A stretch of 64,000 bases of DNA. It comes from Escherichia coli (GTDB lineage Bacteria > Pseudomonadota > Gammaproteobacteria > Enterobacterales > Enterobacteriaceae). Shown here piece after piece: positions 46,095-60,915 of this stretch (position 1 is the stretch's first letter; each line of letters opens with the position of its first letter). The DNA lies in assembly GCF_013315695.1 (NCBI RefSeq), contig NZ_CP054355.1. One strand, 5' to 3'. A program made the translations under genes and the position numbers. Below the pieces are notes generated by a model that had not been told where the DNA came from, did no database searches, and saw nothing but the letters and a program-made list of their open reading frames with translations.

Positions 46095-46231
46095 ACCATC
46101 CTGCACTTATGTTGCACAGAAGGAGTGAGCACAGAAAGAAGTCTTGAACTTTTCCGGGCATATAACTATACTCCCCGCATAGAGCAACAGCTTCTATGCA
46201 GTTTCTTGTTAGCCCCGGTAATCTTTCCTAC

Positions 46232-46330
46232 TCGCCAAAGTTGAAGAAGATTATCGGGGTTTTCGCTTTTCTGGCTCCTGTAAATCCACATCAGAACCAG
46301 TTCCCTGCCACCTTACGGCGTGGCCAGCCA
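46232..46330 (+). ncRNA. copA: CopA antisense RNA region of the IncFII replicon (approximate)
   Basis: Leader sequence gttgaagaagattatcggggttttcgcttttctggctcctgtaaatccacatcagaaccagttccctgccaccttacggcgtggccagccac recognised as the CopA/CopT target region; boundaries and strand inferred. Confidence 0.4.
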
Positions 46331-46895: not shown

Positions 46896-47484
46896 AGCTA
46901 CGATGTTCCGGGGACTGCTGATCAGCCCCTGTTGTATTCAGCCATTCTCCGGTCATCTGCAGCAGTTTTCTGGCATCGTGGCTTCTGAGCAACGGAATAC
47001 CAGCCTGCCTCAGAACCTCTTCCAGAAGAATATCCCGGCGTCTGCGTTCCGGTCGTAAATGGCTGGCATCATCCAGCTCTACTGCTGCAACAATACTGAA
47101 CGAACGCCGCTCAACGATAACCACATCAACATGCCACTGAGACACCATCCTGAATAACTGCCACCACTGGCGTGATCGTGGCCGGATATTCCCGTTCAGC
47201 TGGACGATATCCGCGACCCGTACCTGCGGACACAGATACCACCGCTTCATATCCACAATTCTGAACAGTCCTTTCATAAAACTGACTTCCCTTTCTGTCA
47301 GCAGCGTCTTCTGACGTTGCCAGTATTCACCGCCGGACAGTATTCGCTCTGCATCACCGGTCCGTATACCTGCCGCATGCAACTGCATCAGCAAAGGAGA
47401 ATGCTGATTTACACTTCTGAGGATAATCCGGATAAGTAACGCTGCAATAATCAGAACAATGAGAATAAAAATAATCAGCTTCAT
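46894..47484 (-). CDS. Conserved IncF backbone protein with N-terminal TM helix (possibly DUF2726 nuclease-like)
   Basis: 196 aa ORF; position between repA2 and finO; family from memory only. Confidence 0.45.
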   Translation of the reverse strand: MKLIIFILIVLIIAALLIRIILRSVNQHSPLLMQLHAAGIRTGDAERILSGGEYWQRQKTLLTEREVSFMKGLFRIVDMKRWYLCPQVRVADIVQLNGNIRPRSRQWWQLFRMVSQWHVDVVIVERRSFSIVAAVELDDASHLRPERRRRDILLEEVLRQAGIPLLRSHDARKLLQMTGEWLNTTGADQQSPEHRS

Positions 47485-48238: not shown

Positions 48239-48826
48239 GTTATTCTCCATATCAGATAAATGGCACCTGTATTTCAGGCATCCTGAACATTGCAGCACAC
48301 AATGAATAACACCTTGTTTTGTGAAATAAATCACAAAATATAAAATCTCGACTTAATACGGAAAAAACTCTGTGCTACTCAGAACTGTACGGTCATACTG
48401 CCCGACCGGATATTAAAAAAAGCAAATCTCATGCATTATTCAGCCTTCTGAATCCCTGGAGTAATGAAGGCTGCTTTTTTCGTTACACCCTTCCCCGGCT
48501 GCGCCGGTGGCAGTGTTCAGCCCTTTTTCGGGCAAACTGCTGCCAGTCTGTCCGGGGCGCAACACCGGCAGCCCGTCGCCATGCTTCTGCCGCTTCCATC
48601 CAGCGTCCACTGACCTCCAGAATAACGGCCCGGCTTCCGGCACGCTGCCAGCGCCAGACCTGACCGTTCCGTGAACTGTTTCTGAATCCATTCATCTTTA
48701 TCACTCCTCTTTAACCCGTCAGTATTATGGTGTTAAATAATCTACTGAATTGGCTTCCTTTCGGGTACGGAAGTTATTTCCTTTTAAGCCTTATTTCCCT
48801 GCCTCCTCTCTGATGGAGGCTTTTTT

Positions 48827-51174: not shown

Positions 51175-54100
51175 TCAGTCTCCGCCCAGGGTTTTCTCTT
51201 TCTGCAGGTCACGAACCATATCCCGCTCCATCTGCTGCAGACGCTCCTGCAGCAGATTTTCCCGGGCAACCTCCCGGACCGCTTCCCGCTCCCGTTGTGA
51301 TTCACGCAGCACACTCTCCGGCAGTGCGGTTTCCCGTTCAGATATGGCAGACCGGTCACGCTCCTGTCCGGCAATATCCCTGACAGCCAGCTCTGTTTTG
51401 CCATCCGGCAGGTCAGGTTTGTTCTCTGCCATTTTCCTGACAATTTCATCTGCGCGGCGTTCCGTTTCACGGCGGATGGCCTCTTCAGCCTGCCGCTGTG
51501 CCAGTACCTCTGCCGTGACCGGTTCGCCATTTCCGGCCCCCGGCTGGACGCTGTTATCCGGGATATCCCCCCACACGCGGCCACCGGTGATGGCACCGGG
51601 ATTCCACGGACGACCTTCACCGGCAATTCTCACCACCACACCGCTGTCAGGATTATCACGGGCAATCCGGACGCCATCCTGCATATTATCAGCCAGCAGG
51701 CTCTCTCCGTTACGGCTGCCCTGCAGGGCCACGAACTGCGCATCCCCGCTGCCTTTCACCCGTCCTTCACCACTGAATCCCCGCAGCCCGTTTCCGTCAT
51801 CCGTGGTCAGTGGGTTCAGCCAGATACCAGCTGACTTGCCGTTACGGTCAAACGCCGGCAGTGCCACATACGGCTGCGGATATTTACGTCCCGGTGCAAT
51901 AAACCGTGCAGGGCTGTCTCCCCCGGCCAGCCCTGCCTGACGGAGAACGGCACGGCCTGCCGCCACGTCCCGCAGTTCCCGTGCCGTACTGAACAGCCGC
52001 TGCGCATTCATGACCTCCCGGTCCGGTTTCGGCTCCAGCACATCGTGGGCAGTTCCTTTCTGTACGGCATTGTTAATGGCATCCGTCCAGCCCTGACGGT
52101 TATCGGTGTACACCTGCACATGCTGCTTCATACGCGACAGGGCCACGTAGGCTGACTCAAAGCCGGCCATCAGTTTCCGGTTACCTTCCGTGCCTTCAAG
52201 CGCGATGGCAAAGGTTTCACTCGCCCCCTGCGCACCGTGGGCGGTGATGGCATAAGCCAGGTCAATATGTTGCTCTGCCCGCTCCTGGCCGGGGCGAATC
52301 ACCCGGGTCTGCTGTCCGTCTGACAGCGTGACACTGTCACCGGAAACCGCTGTCACCGTCCAGACGCTGTTGGCCACATAACCGCGCTCCCGGTCACTCT
52401 TCGTGAAGCGCATCCGGTCGCCGGTCCCCACCCGGATTTTGTCCGGGGTGTACAGTGTGACACCTTCAGCCACCGCCTCCCGGGGCGAAATCAGCCGCGT
52501 GTTACCTTCCGCATCCTCCAGGGTTATCAGCCCGTCATCCTTGCTGATACCGGCAATCCGGTGATACACACTATCCACCAGGGCAAGGGCATCCGGGTTA
52601 TTCTCCCAGGTGGAGAGACGACGCAGCTCCCCGTCACGTATATTCGCTGTGTTCAGGACAGGCACCATGACCTGCTCTTTCCCCAGCTCACCGGCCTTTT
52701 CCCGTGCATCATGAATCATGCTGTTCAGTACGCGCCGGTCCTCATTCAGGTGCGTGACAATCAGCGTCTGCTCCCGTGCTTCCGGTGTCCTGCCGGTATA
52801 GTCGCGGACAATGGCTTCATACAGTGTCATGGGGACATCCGGAAAAGTCTCACCTTTCAGCATCGCCTTCTGCTGCGCTTCTGCCAGTTTCGCTTCCTGG
52901 CTGTGACTGAACTCCGTCACGGAGTGCTCCGGTGCCCATGCGCCCTCCTGACGGGGAACCTGAGACGGTTTCACACTCTCAAGCCCGGACAGTGCCCTTT
53001 CCACATCCCGGTTAATCAGGCTGTATACCGCCTCCCGCAGTTCCGGCGTCTGACGCACAATCTCCTTCATGATGACCACATCGGCAGCACTGCGCGTCTG
53101 CTGGAGACGGAAAGGCTGACCGGGCGCGATGGCCTGCAGCTGGTCCGTGTCACCACTGGCCACGGCACGACCGCCACCGGCCGCAATCAGGGCGTATGCC
53201 CGTGCCATGTCGGTATTGCCCACCATTGAGCTCTCATCGAGCAGGAACAGCGTGTTGCTGAAATCCGGCGTTTCTCCGCTGCGCTGCTGCAGCTGCGTGT
53301 CATGCAGAAAGGACGCCAGCGTCTGTGCATCCACGCCGGCGCTGCGCATCTCACCGACCGCACGGTGCGTGGGCCCCAGCCCCACAACTCGGGGACGCTC
53401 ACTCGCCGGCAGCATGTTCACGGCTGACATCACCGCCCGGAACTGTGTGGTCTTACCCACACCGGCATAACCCTGTACCACCGTGAAACGGTCGGACGTT
53501 TCCAGTATCATACGGGTGGCGGCACGCTGTCCCGACGTTAACGTCTCCATGAGTTCGCCGGGTACTCTCTCCATCAGCGGCGTGACCGCCTCCTTACCTT
53601 CGAGAATATGGCGAAGAATACTTTTTTCTGCCTCATACGACGCACGGGAAACCAGCAGGCCTGTGCCATAGCCTTTTGCCACATCCACATACAGTAAGTC
53701 ACCGCGTTTTATCTGCGCATTGATTTCCCCTCCCAGTTCAGTAAAACCGGTTCCTTCTGCAGCAAACGACTTCGCCTCTGTCAGCAGGTCCACCATGCTG
53801 AAGGCCAGGTTTTTACTTTCCAGCACAGGAAGGGCCAGATGAATGGCCTGCTGTGCCGGCGTGTGCAGCCCGGTTTTCTGCAGACTGATAGCGGTTTCCA
53901 GCGATGTCTCACCGGCCCGCGCCTTTATCTGCTCAGAAACCACCGTAAAGGAGGGATGGCGGGCAAGTTTTTCCGCAGTACGGGTTTCATCCAGTGAGGA
54001 ATACAGCCGGACATCACGACCGCTGCGGGCCAGACCGTTCAGGGTGGCGTTGTCCATTGCCATCTGTGTGACGGAGGCAAACACCGTCGCACTGTCACTG

Positions 54101-56445
54101 ACGGAATGCCCGGGCGTTTCCACCCAGCCGTTCTCCAGCTTCAGTGCCGTGAACGGTGAATCAGCCACAGGCAGGGTGGCCGGTTCAGCCCGCCCCGGCA
54201 CAACAACCGTCATCGCATCTTCACTGACGGATGCCACCTGCAGGCGGTCACCGCCGGAGACGCGGAGTCCGGGAATTTTCCCTGTCACCCTCAGTCGCTC
54301 GCCGTCTGCCACCGGCATTTTTTCCGGCCGGAACAGCGACCAGCTGCTGTCCAGGGAGGAAATACGCACCACCTGCGTTTCGCCCTGCGCATCCCGCAGG
54401 GTCAGGCTGTGACTCTGCGCCGTCACCCGGTCGATAACATAGCGGTCATGACTGCGTGTCTCCGGGTTCCACTGCTCCATCACCATCCCCGGTCGGTACA
54501 TATCCCGCAGATAACGGCTCCGGCTGTCCAGCCAGACCGGTGACAGGGCGGTCATGGTCACCTCCGGGTGTCCGAGCACGCCCTGTGTTTTCAGCTCACT
54601 GCGAATGGCCTGTGTCAGTATGGCCTGTTCCCGTACCCCGCTGACCTGTGCCACGCTCTCTTCTCCGGCTTTCACGCTGGCCGCAAAATCTCCGGCCAGC
54701 CGGTCATAGCGGACATTCCGGTCCGGTTCACTGATGATGGTTGCCGGTCGCTGTTCTCCGCCCTGCCAGCGATACGTGTTCACCCCGGTATCCTTCATGG
54801 CCATCAGCGCACTGCCTGTACCGGTTCGCTGCCCGCTGTCGGTTATCAGGACCTGTACGTTATGACGTGCGGCACCGTCCAGCAGGGTTAACGTCTCTTT
54901 CAGGGAGAGTTTTTCGCCCTGGTCGACGATAACAGTACTGCCCGGCGTGAAGACCATGCCCTCCTGCAGCTGACGACGTCCGGTTATCAGCTCACCGGAC
55001 AGCCGTTCATCCTGCTTCAGGTTCATCTGCGAGCGACGGTCAGCAGCGATAATCTGCACCTCCCGCCCCTGCTCCCGGGCCATCATGACCAGTTCAGCCA
55101 CCCGCTCACGCTGCCCGGCTGCACCGCCCTGCCCGGACACAATGGCCAGCGACGGACGGTCCTGTGCCAGAACACTGACCGCATCGCTGTAACCAGCCGT
55201 CCGGGGGACACTTTTCTCCGGATGTACGGTCACCCGGTTCTGTTTCATGATGTCACGACTGAGTGCCCGGACGGACAGCTCATCGAGCACATGAATTCCT
55301 GATGTGAACAGCCCCTTCTCACGGTCGAGGGGGATAAGCTGCTCACGGCTGATGGCCTCATCGATACCGGCGCGTGCCCGTTCAATCACACCATTTTCCG
55401 GCGGCAGTATGCCGACCGTCCTGGCCAGCACGTCCGTATACGTGAACTGCACTTTTCGTTCACTTAATCCGGCAATCGCCTGTGTCACCGCCTGCTGCAC
55501 ATCCGGCCCGTCCTGTGAAGCAGGCCCGGGCGCCTGCGTGCGGATCTCCGCACGCTGATCCGCCGCGTCACGATATGCCCGGATGTCGAACCCGGTTTCC
55601 TTCAGCGTCTGCATCCATTCAGCCATTCTGATTTCCGGATCGACGTGCTGTTTGGATTTACGCGTATCCAGTGCCGCCACATCCCGGGATTTCAGCGAGG
55701 CGTCTTCCCCGACGGCCTCCCGGATAGCCTGTGAGCGTCCGGAAAAGGCCTCCACCGGTACGCCCGGCATCTCCCACATACCGTGCTTACCCACCACTTC
55801 GGTTTCATAGCCCAGCGCCTCAACCTGCTCTTTCAGTTTTTCCCGGTAGAGCCTGCCAAAGGCAATCTGATTAGCGTACACATTCTCAATGAACCCCGTT
55901 TTCCCCACTTTGTCACTGCTCAGTGTCTTCCACTCACCGTTATGCTGCGTGACATTAGCCACCACCGCATGCGTGTGTAACTGTGGTTCCTGATCGCGAC
56001 TGGTGTCGTGGTTAAACAGTGCCATCACCAGATTACCGGTCAGCACCGTTTCTGACTGTCCGTCCGTCATCACCCGTGTGGAGGCCAGCGCCTCCACCTG
56101 ACGAACAGCAAAGTCCACGGCCTGGTTATGTGCATCAATCAGGCGCTTATCGCCACCTAACATGGCCATCATGGAGACACTTTTGGGGGCGGAGAAGGTC
56201 AGGTCGTAGCCGGGACGATGCTTATTACTGCCATCCTGCATGCGGCTTAGATCCGCTCCGTCCGGCAGCCTTCCCTCCAGAAGACGGGTAAAAACATCCT
56301 TATCGACACTGCCCTGCAGTCCCAGCTGTTCAGCCCCCCTGCCGGCCCAGCGTTCTCCCATGCTGCCCAGTACATAGTAATTATCCTTGTCGGTATAATA
56401 GTTACCGGCACTTCCGGCCGATCTGACCTGCGCGATACTCATCAT
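51175..56445 (-). CDS. traI: Relaxase/helicase TraI
   Basis: 1756 aa; N-terminal relaxase, helicase Walker motifs; F TraI length and sequence pattern. Confidence 0.95.
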   Translation of the reverse strand: MMSIAQVRSAGSAGNYYTDKDNYYVLGSMGERWAGRGAEQLGLQGSVDKDVFTRLLEGRLPDGADLSRMQDGSNKHRPGYDLTFSAPKSVSMMAMLGGDKRLIDAHNQAVDFAVRQVEALASTRVMTDGQSETVLTGNLVMALFNHDTSRDQEPQLHTHAVVANVTQHNGEWKTLSSDKVGKTGFIENVYANQIAFGRLYREKLKEQVEALGYETEVVGKHGMWEMPGVPVEAFSGRSQAIREAVGEDASLKSRDVAALDTRKSKQHVDPEIRMAEWMQTLKETGFDIRAYRDAADQRAEIRTQAPGPASQDGPDVQQAVTQAIAGLSERKVQFTYTDVLARTVGILPPENGVIERARAGIDEAISREQLIPLDREKGLFTSGIHVLDELSVRALSRDIMKQNRVTVHPEKSVPRTAGYSDAVSVLAQDRPSLAIVSGQGGAAGQRERVAELVMMAREQGREVQIIAADRRSQMNLKQDERLSGELITGRRQLQEGMVFTPGSTVIVDQGEKLSLKETLTLLDGAARHNVQVLITDSGQRTGTGSALMAMKDTGVNTYRWQGGEQRPATIISEPDRNVRYDRLAGDFAASVKAGEESVAQVSGVREQAILTQAIRSELKTQGVLGHPEVTMTALSPVWLDSRSRYLRDMYRPGMVMEQWNPETRSHDRYVIDRVTAQSHSLTLRDAQGETQVVRISSLDSSWSLFRPEKMPVADGERLRVTGKIPGLRVSGGDRLQVASVSEDAMTVVVPGRAEPATLPVADSPFTALKLENGWVETPGHSVSDSATVFASVTQMAMDNATLNGLARSGRDVRLYSSLDETRTAEKLARHPSFTVVSEQIKARAGETSLETAISLQKTGLHTPAQQAIHLALPVLESKNLAFSMVDLLTEAKSFAAEGTGFTELGGEINAQIKRGDLLYVDVAKGYGTGLLVSRASYEAEKSILRHILEGKEAVTPLMERVPGELMETLTSGQRAATRMILETSDRFTVVQGYAGVGKTTQFRAVMSAVNMLPASERPRVVGLGPTHRAVGEMRSAGVDAQTLASFLHDTQLQQRSGETPDFSNTLFLLDESSMVGNTDMARAYALIAAGGGRAVASGDTDQLQAIAPGQPFRLQQTRSAADVVIMKEIVRQTPELREAVYSLINRDVERALSGLESVKPSQVPRQEGAWAPEHSVTEFSHSQEAKLAEAQQKAMLKGETFPDVPMTLYEAIVRDYTGRTPEAREQTLIVTHLNEDRRVLNSMIHDAREKAGELGKEQVMVPVLNTANIRDGELRRLSTWENNPDALALVDSVYHRIAGISKDDGLITLEDAEGNTRLISPREAVAEGVTLYTPDKIRVGTGDRMRFTKSDRERGYVANSVWTVTAVSGDSVTLSDGQQTRVIRPGQERAEQHIDLAYAITAHGAQGASETFAIALEGTEGNRKLMAGFESAYVALSRMKQHVQVYTDNRQGWTDAINNAVQKGTAHDVLEPKPDREVMNAQRLFSTARELRDVAAGRAVLRQAGLAGGDSPARFIAPGRKYPQPYVALPAFDRNGKSAGIWLNPLTTDDGNGLRGFSGEGRVKGSGDAQFVALQGSRNGESLLADNMQDGVRIARDNPDSGVVVRIAGEGRPWNPGAITGGRVWGDIPDNSVQPGAGNGEPVTAEVLAQRQAEEAIRRETERRADEIVRKMAENKPDLPDGKTELAVRDIAGQERDRSAISERETALPESVLRESQREREAVREVARENLLQERLQQMERDMVRDLQKEKTLGGD

Positions 56446-58670
56446 CAGAAATCATCTCCCGGCTCAACATCCTCCCCACGCTCCCGGTGCACATTAATGT
56501 TCACCTCTTCACGACGCTGCATCTGCTGCTGGATGTCCGGATGATTTTCCTGTTGCCATGCCTCATAAGCGGCCATATCCACCACTTCACCGGATTCACT
56601 GATCCCGGGTGGCAGTTGCTGTTCCATCTCTTCTTCCGGTTTCATTTTCAGCTCCTGCTCGATCCCCCCTGCCGGAACACTCACACCTGCATCTGACTTC
56701 TTATCATTGATGACAGAAGACACTGGCTGTTGTGGCTGTTGTGGCTGTTGTGGCTGTTGTGGCTGTTGTGGCTGTTGTGGCTGTTGTGGCTGTTGTGGCT
56801 GTTGTGGCTGTTGTGGCTGTTCAGCCTGAGTCACATCTTCTCCGGAGGCAACCTCCGGTTCAAAGAGGCTGGCCATCTGACGACCTTCTGCTTCCCTTGC
56901 GGCAAGTACGGCACTCAGACGGTTCTCCATTTCCGGGTTGATGTCACGCGGAATAAACTCCGGAGCGACCTTCGGTCGTGCCTGATATTTCAGAGAGAGT
57001 TTGACTGCCGGATACGGTCCGGGCAGAGTGACATAGCAGGTCAGATCCGGCAGAGACTGAATGTCGGAATAACTGACCAGCGTCTGACGCTCCATATCCT
57101 TACCGGTCGATACCCCGTCACGTACCGGGTCAGCACCGTAGGAATACTGCTCGCTGGCTTTCAGGTGCTCTTTCTCACCAATCTCACCGGCAGCGAACTC
57201 TGCAATCTTATGGCTCGGGGAACGGAAAAAAGCACGGGTGTTCATGACGTCAAACAGCGTGGCCGCCGCTTTCTCACCGTAGATATCTTCCAGCTGGGCA
57301 TAGGACTGGATACCAAACACATAACAGCCACCGAACTTACGGGCTTCCGGCAGGATCTCCACCAGGTCCGGCAGTTTGTGTAACGTGGGTAACTCGTCAC
57401 AGAAAAACCACACACGACGGTTACGGTTTTCTCCCATTGCCAGCAGACCACGAATGGCAATGGACAGCCACATGGAGATCACCGGCTTCAGGGAGGCATG
57501 GGTGTCGGCGTTCGACGAAATAAACAGCCAGCCGTTTTTCTGATCTTCCCGGACACCACGCATCCAGTCACGGATGGTAAAAGACTCACCGTTATGCTCA
57601 ATCCCCTGCAGGTAACGGATGGCTTTCACGTAGTTGGTCAGCACAGCACGGATGGAAATCGCCGTTTTCTCAATTTTCTCTTCCACCAGGTTGGCTGCCG
57701 GTGAATTACGCAGGAAGGTACGCAGTTTTTCAATTTTGATGGAAAGCAGTGTGTCCACCAGTTTGCTGTAGCTGCGGTTGGGGTCATTACGCATCAGGTA
57801 CGCCGCTTCCGCAAAAATGGTACGTCCTGAACCCTGCCAGAACGGGTCCTCTTTTGTACCCATAGGGATCAGAGTATTTGCGGTATTATCAAAATCCGGC
57901 TGTGTCAGGCACTCCTTCCACAAATCCCATGCGGCACAGCGGGCATCCAGCGGATTCAGGATTTTATCGATGGAGGGATCATAGTAACTTTTAACAAATT
58001 CCCCTGAACGGTCATAAATCACCACCATATCACCGCGCTGACGGGCATAGTTGGCCAGACGACGGATAACCTCCGACTTACCGGCCCCGACCGTGCCGTG
58101 CAGACAGAAGTTCTGGATTTCGGAATCCCGGATAATCGGCAGGTCGCCAATCCGGATATCGGAGTCCTTGCCGTCTTTTTTCAGCATCCGGGCCACTTCT
58201 TTCGGGTTATCCGTCAGCTGACGCCCGCCGGTCACCTCATTTTCACTCTGCTGTTTCCCCTGATGCCCCAGAATCCAGGAGACAACAAAGAAGGTGATCA
58301 GGCAAATAACCAGGGCCACGACAGACGCCAGAACGAATGCAGACCATAGCTGCTCTCCGCACCAGATCATATATTTATCATGCAGTACCTGGGCAGCGTT
58401 CATCCGGAAGGTTTTGCCGTAATACTGGATCTCATAGACCGGCTGGGATTTTATTAAATCCCGCATGCCTTCCAGTGACGTACACCACCAGTAAATACAG
58501 CCGTTGATAAACGTCTGCCAGCTTATTTTTACCCATAAGACCAGACCAATGAGGATCCAGAAAAAAATAAACAGGCAGTAAAGCATGATATTGGCGATCT
58601 GGCTGAACATGCGGATACGCATGGACGCAATCTGACCGCCCTGGGTCATATCCTTTGCGTTAAAACTCAT
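56445..58670 (-). CDS. traD: Type IV coupling protein TraD
   Basis: 741 aa; N-terminal TM helices, Walker A, C-terminal QQP repeats. Confidence 0.95.
56725..56818. repeat. Tandem 9-bp repeat (ggctgttgt, about 10 copies) encoding QQP repeats within traD
   Basis: Read directly; in-frame within traD. Confidence 0.85.
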
Positions 58671-58720
58671 GATGAAACTCCGGGAAAATCTGGAACAGGG
58701 CAGAAAAGGATGATGTGGGG

Positions 58721-59458
58721 TTAATTCACAGAAACAGACCAGGTGTACCCTGTATGCCGGTGGTGATGCCCGCCTGCAGTCCTGCCGGAAGAGACCTTCT
58801 CTGTAACAATGTCAGTCAGGCGCAATACTTCAGACCAGTCACTCCCATGCGGAAACTGGATCTGAATAAAAAGGCGTACCCGTTCACGGTGATCCAGAAC
58901 TGTGTCCGGTTCATAAAAACGGCCACTGTCAGGAGAAACACAGGACGTTTTATTGATGAGATCATACTTATCGGCAGGAGACTGCGATGAAATCGCCCAG
59001 GTGATATTCTCCGCCTGGTGGCCATCAATACGACTGCTCCCCGGCGTCCATGCAATTTCCTGCGCACTCGCCACGATGATCTCCCTGGAAACTTCAGCCA
59101 GCTTTCTGGGTGTACAGAATACCGGTGCCAGCACACACAGGGACAACAAATTACAGCTGACCGCCTCCGGTTTAAGCAAATTGCTCCCGGATTTTTCAGG
59201 AAAAGATATTTTTGTCAGTATTTCAGTTAATTCCTTATGCCTGAGAGAATTAATAAAGTACATGATAAGCATCATGAGAAACAATATAACAATAAGCCCT
59301 CCGATAACCACTAAAAGGTCAGTATCAATATTATTGCTGTACAGATAGTCTTTAGTGGTCACTGTATTATCCTGTATCACCGGGGGGTATTCAGTTACAG
59401 GCTTCTCAGTAAATTGATTATTCTCACCAACATATTCAGCGATATTGTCTGATGTCAT
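58721..59458 (-). CDS. Hypothetical single-pass membrane protein inserted between traT and traD
   Basis: ORF 58721..59524, probable start [10 protein letters not shown]; one TM helix ([22 protein letters not shown]); no family recognised. Confidence 0.4.
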
Positions 59459-59536
59459 AATGACTTTCTCCGGAAGATCCCGGCTTCGCCGGCAACACTT
59501 CACGGTCGCACAAAGAATTTGCACAACCGCTCAGTG

Positions 59537-59620
59537 TTTTCATATTTATTTCGGAAACGCCGGGAGGTGACAAAATTTATTTTGTTACATCCCGGGGTTG
59601 GACAACGAGCAACGCGAGGC
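59537..59620. repeat. Conserved about 85-bp element, copy B, followed by hairpin ggaggc..gcctcc
   Basis: See copy A at 46811..46895; lies just 3' of traT. Confidence 0.6.
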
Positions 59621-59660
59621 GTCAGCAAGGAGGCCGGTCAGATCAGCCTCCTGACGAGGT

Positions 59661-60392
59661 TCAGAGAATATTTGCGATTGATTTGGCCAGTTGGTCTTCG
59701 AGAACAGGCTTCGCCTCTTCAAATTTCAGGTTAACCTTGTTCGCATTTGAAACCACACGGGTCTGGTATTTATGCTGGTTACCTGTTTCAGTACTGGTCT
59801 GAATTTTCGCACCTGATGTGCCCTGACGCAGGGCGGCAACATTATCCGTTGTCACCGTTGCCTTAGTACGCTCTGCAATCTGTACATCCGTGATCATGGT
59901 ATAGTTCACATCTTCCACCATCGCATCTGCAGCCATACCCACCAGACCAGCAGCAAGGCCTACACCGAGTGTGGCACCGGCAGAATTTGAGTTATAGCCG
60001 GTAATACCGGCACCTAACGCTGCACCAACAGCTGCGCCTTCATAACCACGGTTCAGCCATCCCTGAGACTCCCGCAGATCCATCTTATCAGCCTTCAGCA
60101 CATTCGCCTGAATCCAGTAGTAGGCTTTATCCGGAGAAGTCACCACCTGATATCCTTTTGCTTTCACAGCATCAGCAATTTTGCCCTGCAGCCCACTCAT
60201 GTCTTTATCAGACGTGTTTTTGATCTGCAGAAATACCGTGCGTTCGCTGGCGGGTTCAAGCCAGATGGTCTCACTCATCTGAGTCTTCACCTCAAGGTTA
60301 CGCTTCTTGATTGCTGTGCTCATCGCACCACACCCTGAAAGGGCCAGAGTGGAACTGACCAGTGCAACCATCATCAATTTTTTTGTTTTCAT
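59661..60392 (-). CDS. traT: Surface exclusion / serum resistance lipoprotein TraT
   Basis: 243 aa [47 protein letters not shown]... matches TraT. Confidence 0.9.
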
Positions 60393-60405: not shown

Positions 60406-60915
60406 TTAACTAACAGACTCTTTTTTGAATAGTCCTATTACTGAGGCTATAGCTGAGAGATTATAACGATTTATATCTATGGTATACACCAAGAAAAATA
60501 ATATGAATGTAATCATTAGTGCAAAAACATATAAGATAGAATGCATAAACGAAACCATAGAAAAAACAATCAAAAACAACAAAATATATGTCTTACTCTT
60601 AGAATACATAAAATTTATTATTTTTGAATCCTTTCTGAAACTATCAGGAATCGCAAGGTATAACATCATTCCATTTGTAATAGCCACAAAAAGCAGGAAC
60701 CCCATCATTCCACTAGCACATATATCAAAGCCAACATCCCTGACATCACTTTTAACCGATACTAAACGCAGAAAAGTTGGCCATAATAAAACCCATAAAA
60801 ACACATAAGTTCCCGGCTTTATGACTTGTAATAATGATGGGATATTAACACCCTCTACAGAGAGTACCTCCTTTAGTTTCTGCATCTCCATTTTTATATC
60901 ATAGTGAGTGATCAT
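60406..60915 (-). CDS. traS: Entry exclusion inner-membrane protein TraS
   Basis: 169 aa hydrophobic, AT-rich, between traG and traT. Confidence 0.6.

Follow-up and report, generated by a model that had tools for sequence, protein, structure and literature searches.

The window is a stretch of 64,000 nucleotides (nt) of Escherichia coli DNA (contig NZ_CP054355.1 of assembly GCF_013315695.1) which carries on its minus strand the genes of an F-like transfer (tra) operon. The subject of this analysis is yhfA, also called orfE, which is located between traT and traD and is a genuine protein-coding gene, moderately constrained and fast-evolving. Its open reading frame (ORF) is on the same strand as both neighbours. 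It encodes a single-pass membrane protein and is absent from F, as a preliminary description of this DNA had pointed out; the coordinates given there correspond exactly to the frame from ATG to stop. The locus comprises the following features, with the basis of each in parentheses.

60912-63737, minus strand: traG (ORF list)
60406-60915, minus strand: traS-like ORF of 169 amino acids (ORF list)
59661-60392, minus strand: traT, upstream neighbour of yhfA (ORF list; annotation of the identical R100 region)
59477-59660, minus strand: conserved structured non-coding RNA segment 3' of traT (alignment with F- and pSLT-type plasmids; RNA fold)
58685-59476, minus strand: R100-type-specific segment of ~790 nt (three-way alignment)
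59468-59471, minus strand: Shine-Dalgarno motif GGAG, 9 nt 5' of the yhfA ATG (read from the sequence)
58721-59458, minus strand: yhfA/orfE, 245 codons plus TAA stop (ORF list; 100% identity to R100 WP_000199905.1)
58671-58720, minus strand: spacer of 50 nt from the yhfA stop to the traD ATG (promoter/terminator scan; sequence)
56445-58670, minus strand: traD, coupling protein, downstream neighbour (ORF list; R100 annotation)

The ATG of yhfA is at 59458, the TAA stop codon occupies 58721-58723 and the product has 245 amino acids. Loci compared with the window are numbered here with the letter L and protein clusters with the letter P. Every allele class (L005, L006, L007 and L009-L012) keeps the GGAG motif at a distance of 8-9 nt 5' of the ATG. 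A GTG-extended form of 267 amino acids was rejected, since its extra 22 codons are part of the sequence shared with F and the homologues all begin at the ATG. An overlapping ORF of 106 amino acids in an alternate frame and the ORFs of the plus strand were also rejected, and the variants of 213 amino acids which enter the alternate frame are frameshifts.

Selection on the gene was estimated from codon alignments of the window with seven other loci. The ratio of nonsynonymous to synonymous substitution rates (dN/dS) is 0.20-0.28 in the C-terminal 145 codons in every pair with an informative synonymous rate (dS of 0.13-1.5), 0.3-0.5 in the N-terminal ~100 codons and 0.25-0.5 over the whole ORF; the pair with L011 is nearly identical (dS 0.01) and uninformative for this ratio. 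In the same pairs the neighbours present values of 0.02-0.09 (traT) and 0.04-0.11 (traD). Purifying selection on yhfA is moderate, and the gene evolves at several times the rate of traT and traD. Clusters of the intact full-length protein contain ~4,480 member sequences versus ~50 in the frameshifted 213-amino-acid clusters; ~99% of full-length copies are intact, and most of the truncated clusters are located at contig ends. The large N-truncated cluster P0016, also at a contig end, corresponds to an assembly break at an insertion sequence (IS), and insertions of IS1, IS26 and ISEc8 into yhfA occur. Purifying selection, the presence of distant homologues in the same frame and position, and the conserved GGAG indicate that yhfA is not a chance reading frame.

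The gene is very common, has long been annotated and is not peculiar to this window. Over an interval of 1,101 nt the window matches the resistance plasmid R100 of Shigella flexneri (NC_002134.1) with 100% identity, and there the identical protein, WP_000199905.1, is annotated as "hypothetical protein"; in UniRef it is named "OrfE protein" (Q99389, Q99389_ECOLX) in a cluster of 2,474 members. The window gene and the R100 gene are the same in sequence and in traT-traD position, without any difference, and homologues are located on the same strand between traT and traD in L005, L006 and L007-L012. In the description of plasmid pEntH10407 the R100 gene next to traD is called YhfA and F is reported to have no similar ORF (PMC2762410). 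As an annotated hypothetical gene of R100, yhfA/orfE is thus already on record.

In PLSDB the flanks of the interval were matched by 4,076 plasmids, 1,764 of which contain the whole interval, and the YhfA protein was identified by tblastn in 1,931 plasmids, 1,911 of them typed as conjugative. Consequently ~44-47% of the flank-matching F-like plasmids (1,764-1,931/4,076) carry yhfA. Among complete E. coli genomes it is present in 1,209 of 5,426, and 1,397 of its 1,401 places are on plasmids. The preliminary description had considered the gene inserted; the interval is, on the contrary, the standard R100 arrangement.

The comparison of the traT-traD interval across F-like plasmids, proposed in that description, gave 990 nt in the window, whereas the F-type plasmid compared (L002) has 252 nt and the pSLT-type one (L003) 376 nt. 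In a three-way alignment the intervals have in common ~184 non-coding nt at the traT end and ~15 nt at the traD end; the middle stretch differs and comprises ~790 nt in the window, ~57 nt in the F type and ~180 nt in the pSLT type. That the F and pSLT intervals are deletion remnants of yhfA is a weak suggestion, made from slight similarities (E of ~0.1, the search space being tiny). The common segment at 59477-59660 is probably a stabiliser or terminator region at the 3' end of traT, and when the variable interval is exchanged it serves as the upstream homology arm. The fold of 59440-59665 contains several strong hairpins (-84.9 kcal/mol, z = -5.2, none of 200 shuffles being as stable), and Rfam has no RNA family within the traT-traD interval.

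The promoter/terminator scan identified no sigma-70 consensus site 5' of the yhfA ATG and, on the minus strand, no terminator-like hairpin between yhfA and traD. Since that terminator is absent, co-transcription with traD by read-through is expected. In the pEC867_1-type allele (L012 3201-3980) the stop codon is lost and the reading frame, now for 259 amino acids, has a 4-nt overlap with the traD start codon; this implies that translation of the two genes is coupled in that lineage. The gene has the layout of the non-essential accessory genes of F-like tra operons: it is inside the operon, on the same strand, and has no strong promoter or terminator of its own.

The protein comprises four parts, given here by residue and by position in the window.

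59324-59458, minus strand: N-terminal tail, residues 1-45 (charge and isoelectric point; allele comparison; AlphaFold2)
59255-59323, minus strand: single transmembrane helix, residues 46-68 (Kyte-Doolittle; AlphaFold2)
59156-59254, minus strand: juxtamembrane helix and linker, residues 69-101 (basic cluster R-H-K at its start; AlphaFold2 helix to residue 85)
58724-59155, minus strand: conserved C-terminal alpha/beta domain, residues 102-245 (invariant alignment columns; AlphaFold2; dN/dS)

The tail is acidic, with an isoelectric point (pI) of 4.05, a net charge of about -6 to -7 and no more than two K/R; it is also rich in proline and has 37% GC. It is hypervariable, with 23-29% identity between allele classes versus 34-95% in the C-terminal domain, and it is probably disordered, its predicted local distance difference test score (pLDDT) in the AlphaFold2 model being about 30. 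The sole strong hydrophobic segment has its Kyte-Doolittle maximum (3.22) at residues 48-66 and is modelled as part of a helix of residues 46-85, with pLDDT of 81-84 in the transmembrane part. Directly after it, a K/R cluster was identified in all four allele classes (RHK; KxxxxxKKR; RK; RRNK), and the tail net charge is -4 to -7 across the same classes. The predicted topology is N-out/C-in, with the tail periplasmic and the C-terminal domain cytoplasmic.

The C-terminal domain contains the invariant motifs W-x-PG-x-SR-x-DG-x-Q-x-x-N-x-T-W, R-L-x-x-Q-I-Q-F/Y and AGG-(H/Y)...G-Y-T-W. Modelled at full length with 13 close homologues, the protein reached a pLDDT of 43, whereas the domain alone, with the L007 subfamily added, reached 85 (84.9, predicted template modelling score 0.84). 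The order of elements is b1-a1-b2-b3-loops-b4-a2-b5-b6, an overall topology which the model presents as a two-layer sandwich of 2x(beta-alpha-beta-beta). The halves of the domain resemble copies of one beta-alpha-beta-beta unit, with sequence support in the P0075 allele only (0/2000 shuffles; 134/2000 in the window allele and also non-significant in the L007 type). The pI of the domain is about 6.4, so it is no obvious nucleic-acid binder. A second hydrophobic stretch, with the internal segment LCVLAPVFC, was considered as a lipobox or second transmembrane segment and rejected: it is below the transmembrane threshold, it is modelled as strand b1 of the soluble domain, and conservation of its cysteines does not extend to the L007 type.

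That the protein belongs to no known family, as the preliminary description held, was confirmed in the curated libraries: none of the three or four yhfA alleles searched was assigned to a family by Pfam, NCBIfam, PADLOC or PHROGs. The sole curated-library match was COX5A, at E = 0.2 and on the spurious GTG-extended form. No matches to the defence profiles of PADLOC-DB v2 were found for three alleles, and the L007 type presented only one in the transmembrane region (E = 0.0095). The search of the PDB identified no significant sequence-profile match and no structural relative for the C-terminal domain. YhfA is also not of the TraT surface exclusion lipoprotein type (PF05818), having no Pfam match and no N-terminal signal peptide. 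Homology search and structure prediction thus gave a confident domain model and positional homologues, and no known family or fold.

Base composition is divided along the same lines. The tail, transmembrane segment and linker of yhfA have 35-38% GC and the C-terminal domain 52%, compared with 49% in traT, 52.5% in traD and 32% in the traS-like gene. The different base composition noted in the preliminary description is therefore found in the N-terminal ~100 codons and not in the C-terminal domain, which is like traT and traD.

Among 1.84 billion cluster representatives, searched in full with a HMMER profile, only the yhfA family and one distant match, P0139, were identified; the latter is a positional homologue of the L007 type. 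A word-indexed search of 5.8 billion proteins, with R100-type and L007-type queries, identified only members of the same family, fragments and frameshifts. As far as these searches reach, yhfA forms an orphan family, restricted to F-like plasmids of Enterobacteriaceae. All its allele classes (R100 type, P0030, P0075 and L007 type) are located between traT and traD. Compared with the window, P0030 is 29% identical in the N-terminal 100 residues and 94.5% in the C-terminal domain, and P0075 is 62% identical in the latter. The L007 type (CP099183, L007; Escherichia marmotae NZ_CP099345, L008) has 230 amino acids, is 35% identical over the C-terminal domain and was found in 49 PLSDB records and a protein cluster of 675 members. 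In this type the gene that follows is a DUF2726 gene, accompanied in L008 by vapBC. A DUF2726 homologue, 42% identical to that gene, is also present in the window near the replication region (46963-47301, minus strand), so both genes are found in R100-type plasmids, although they are not adjacent.

Between L007 and the window the TraD proteins are only 43% identical and the TraT proteins 85%. The slot is held across this deep divergence of the operon, and an ancestral operon member, later lost or exchanged, is therefore likelier than a recent insertion. The two modules of the gene reassort: nucleotide identity to the window is 96% in the N-terminal and 84% in the C-terminal module of L010, and 45% and 93%, respectively, in L006. 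L011, with yhfA, and the F-type L002, without it, are 99.3% identical in traT and 98.8% in traD; presence or absence of yhfA has therefore been exchanged through the conserved flanks. F is transfer-proficient without the gene and IS insertions into it occur elsewhere, and for this reason it is dispensable for conjugation as such. On sequence comparison yhfA looks like an old, dispensable and recombining member of the tra operon, lost by F, and we infer the same loss in pSLT.

In the pSLT-type interval (L003 1540-1916) a degenerate small ORF was observed, which reads MPLSELLCHMTNGNPFS, then an in-frame TGA, then LFAVLVVCAAVLYFLKKRK. Its layout is yhfA-like (short tail, transmembrane segment, KKRK anchor) and its start context aligns with the Shine-Dalgarno/ATG region of yhfA. 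It may be the remnant of a lost yhfA allele, the similarity being statistically non-significant.

The explanation tentatively preferred, at somewhat less than an even chance, is that YhfA, expressed together with TraD, serves the transfer apparatus as a dispensable inner-membrane accessory and modulates substrate delivery or the stability of the machine. The gene would be transcribed with traD by read-through from tra or traT promoters. The protein would insert N-out/C-in, so that its conserved domain would face the cytoplasm at the inner membrane, where TraD, TraC and the relaxosome are active. There it would modulate, without being required for, substrate delivery or the stability of the inner-membrane part of the machine. 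A role in the transfer machine itself is a guess, made from operon membership, positional conservation and predicted topology. A weak hint of such a link is the coupling of traC and yhfA variation in plasmids of sequence type 131 (ST131), identified by a population-genomic genome-wide epistasis study (GWES; preprint 10.64898/2025.12.08.692488).

The F tra operon has non-essential accessory genes, among them trbA, trbD, trbE, trbF, trbH, trbJ and traP. YhfA resembles their products in being a small or medium inner-membrane protein encoded within the operon and on the same strand, dispensable and variably present among F-like plasmids. It differs in its conserved soluble domain, which is of considerable size, and is unrelated to them in sequence, the class being operational and not a homology family.

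Several observations weigh against this accessory role. Full-text literature searches identified no functional, experimental or expression study of yhfA, and no sequence or fold match was found that ties the C-terminal domain to any component of a type IV secretion system (T4SS). The N-out/C-in topology is derived from charge distribution only (the positive-inside rule). The AT-rich N-terminal ~100 codons are near the exclusion gene traS in GC content (32%). L011 pairs an R100-like yhfA (98.8% nucleotide identity) with an F-like traD (98.8% to L002); alleles of yhfA reassort independently of those of traD, which argues against tight co-evolution with TraD. Presence and absence segregate among nearly identical flanks, as expected of exchangeable cargo, and the slot of the L007 lineage also holds the DUF2726 gene and sometimes vapBC, so that the interval accepts cargo.

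A more ambitious version of the accessory role is quite doubtful. In it YhfA is a lineage-specific component of F-like conjugation with a new fold, a membrane-tethered cytoplasmic domain which gates the TraD-dependent channel. Such gating might, for example, tune the efficiency or host range of plasmid transfer, or block the TraD-dependent entry of male-specific RNA phages, and the hypervariable periplasmic tail would give allele specificity.

The best-surviving of the other explanations, although an unlikely one, is that YhfA is an exclusion or immunity-type protein of the traS-traT module which blocks entry of nucleic acid through the envelope or the T4SS. Its targets would be related incoming plasmids, as a third exclusion determinant, or the male-specific phages dependent on TraD, and the variable periplasmic tail would determine specificity. 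The f2/R17-group RNA phages require TraD for infection, a fact counted for this explanation. The gene is directly 3' of traS-traT, although the conserved and strongly structured RNA segment separates it from traT. The protein is bitopic in the inner membrane, and its hypervariable N-terminal module (23-29% identity; C-terminal domain up to 95%) is swapped by recombination and encoded by DNA as AT-rich as the traS-like gene; however, among the few loci examined there is no correspondence of the N-terminal class with the type of traS or traT. Like exclusion alleles, yhfA is dispensable and polymorphic.

Comparison with the entry-exclusion proteins (TraS of F and R100; Eex of SXT/R391) gives a similar balance. 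They share with YhfA the inner-membrane location, the place beside traT, an AT-rich, hypervariable and recombining segment and the lack of a requirement in transfer. YhfA differs in its single transmembrane segment and its conserved domain of 145 residues: ~60% of the protein is this probably cytoplasmic domain, unlike the small and wholly variable TraS, Eex and TrbK. No similarity of YhfA to any exclusion protein was found in Pfam or NCBIfam, nor any match in PADLOC or PHROGs. In addition, yhfA does not occupy the traS position between traG and traT, where the window has a separate traS-like gene, the 169-amino-acid ORF at 60406-60915. The roles in exclusion, anti-defence or fitness raised in the preliminary description are, on the sequence evidence, neither supported nor excluded.

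The traS-position ORF itself (60406-60915, minus strand) has 32% GC and no Pfam match, and its R100 counterpart is named in RefSeq "hypothetical protein" and not TraS. In some yhfA-positive plasmids the traS slot contains a reverse-oriented "heavy metal-binding domain" gene of ~102 amino acids (L010 1758-3025; L006 2661-2969), and the traT slot of L010 contains an unrelated hypothetical protein of 262 amino acids without Pfam match.

It is rather improbable that yhfA is cargo unrelated to conjugation, a host-fitness, defence or anti-defence gene placed in a permissive distal hotspot of the tra operon and spread by homologous recombination through the conserved flanks. The content of the interval varies as this would predict: nothing in F, ~180 nt in pSLT, yhfA in R100, and a yhfA-like gene with DUF2726 or with DUF2726 and vapBC in other plasmids. 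Presence and absence switch between near-identical backbones, and the family is an orphan confined to Enterobacteriaceae F-like plasmids. Pairs of vapBC in reverse orientation were identified between DUF2726 and traD (L008 5957-6582) and, also counted for cargo, between traD and traI (L009 6163-6788; L010 6268-6893); the gaps of the distal tra operon therefore tolerate cargo. However, yhfA was never identified outside the traT-traD slot, the contig L004, short and without tra genes, having the same order of yhfA-like gene, DUF2726 and vapBC as L008. Its position is also kept in homologues of as little as 35% identity, whose operon has a TraD only 43% identical, which points to co-divergence with the operon. 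Neither defence nor phage libraries gave matches, and the interval boundaries have no signature of a mobile element.

That yhfA is a decaying, functionless leftover which persists by hitch-hiking in a successful plasmid lineage is highly improbable because of the constraint data: although frameshifted 213-amino-acid variants, N-terminal truncations and IS insertions exist, F and pSLT manage without the gene and its dN/dS (0.2-0.5) is several-fold above that of traT and traD, this ratio is well below 1 over dS up to ~1.3, the motifs are conserved at 35% identity, the domain is confidently predicted to fold, and the few truncated copies are mostly those at contig ends.

Other features of the window were recorded outside the interval. 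The C-terminal region of TraD (about 56707-56829, minus strand) contains ~ten QQP repeats (QPQQPQQP...), which on the opposite strand result in long spurious ORFs of CCG repeats. Rfam matches at gathering level were identified on the plus strand at 62933-63018, 53520-53596, 48402-48586 and 46179-46268: AS-traG, AS-traI, AS-pc02 (antisense to pHK01_099) and CopA. These antisense RNA and CopA matches mark the window as an IncFII plasmid of the pHK01/R100-like kind. Two identical-scoring matches to the ALIL pseudoknot, a transposase frameshift element, are located ~11 kb apart at 14054-14170 (minus strand) and 25087-25203 (plus strand), and from their opposed orientation a pair of inverted IS copies is suggested, possibly the two ends of a composite transposon.

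To the record of yhfA the present analysis adds evidence that it is under purifying selection, homologues in the same position at deep divergence, the recombination of its modules, an N-out/C-in topology by prediction and an orphan fold modelled with confidence. R100-, R1- and pHK01-type IncFII plasmids are major vehicles of genes for ESBL (extended-spectrum beta-lactamase) and carbapenemase, and yhfA is within their transfer operon. If YhfA did gate the TraD-dependent channel, it would represent a new functional class in one of the best-studied bacterial operons, affecting plasmids carried by ~22% of sequenced E. coli. Any influence of yhfA on transfer, exclusion or phage sensitivity would help to explain differences in behaviour between F-type and R100-type plasmids.
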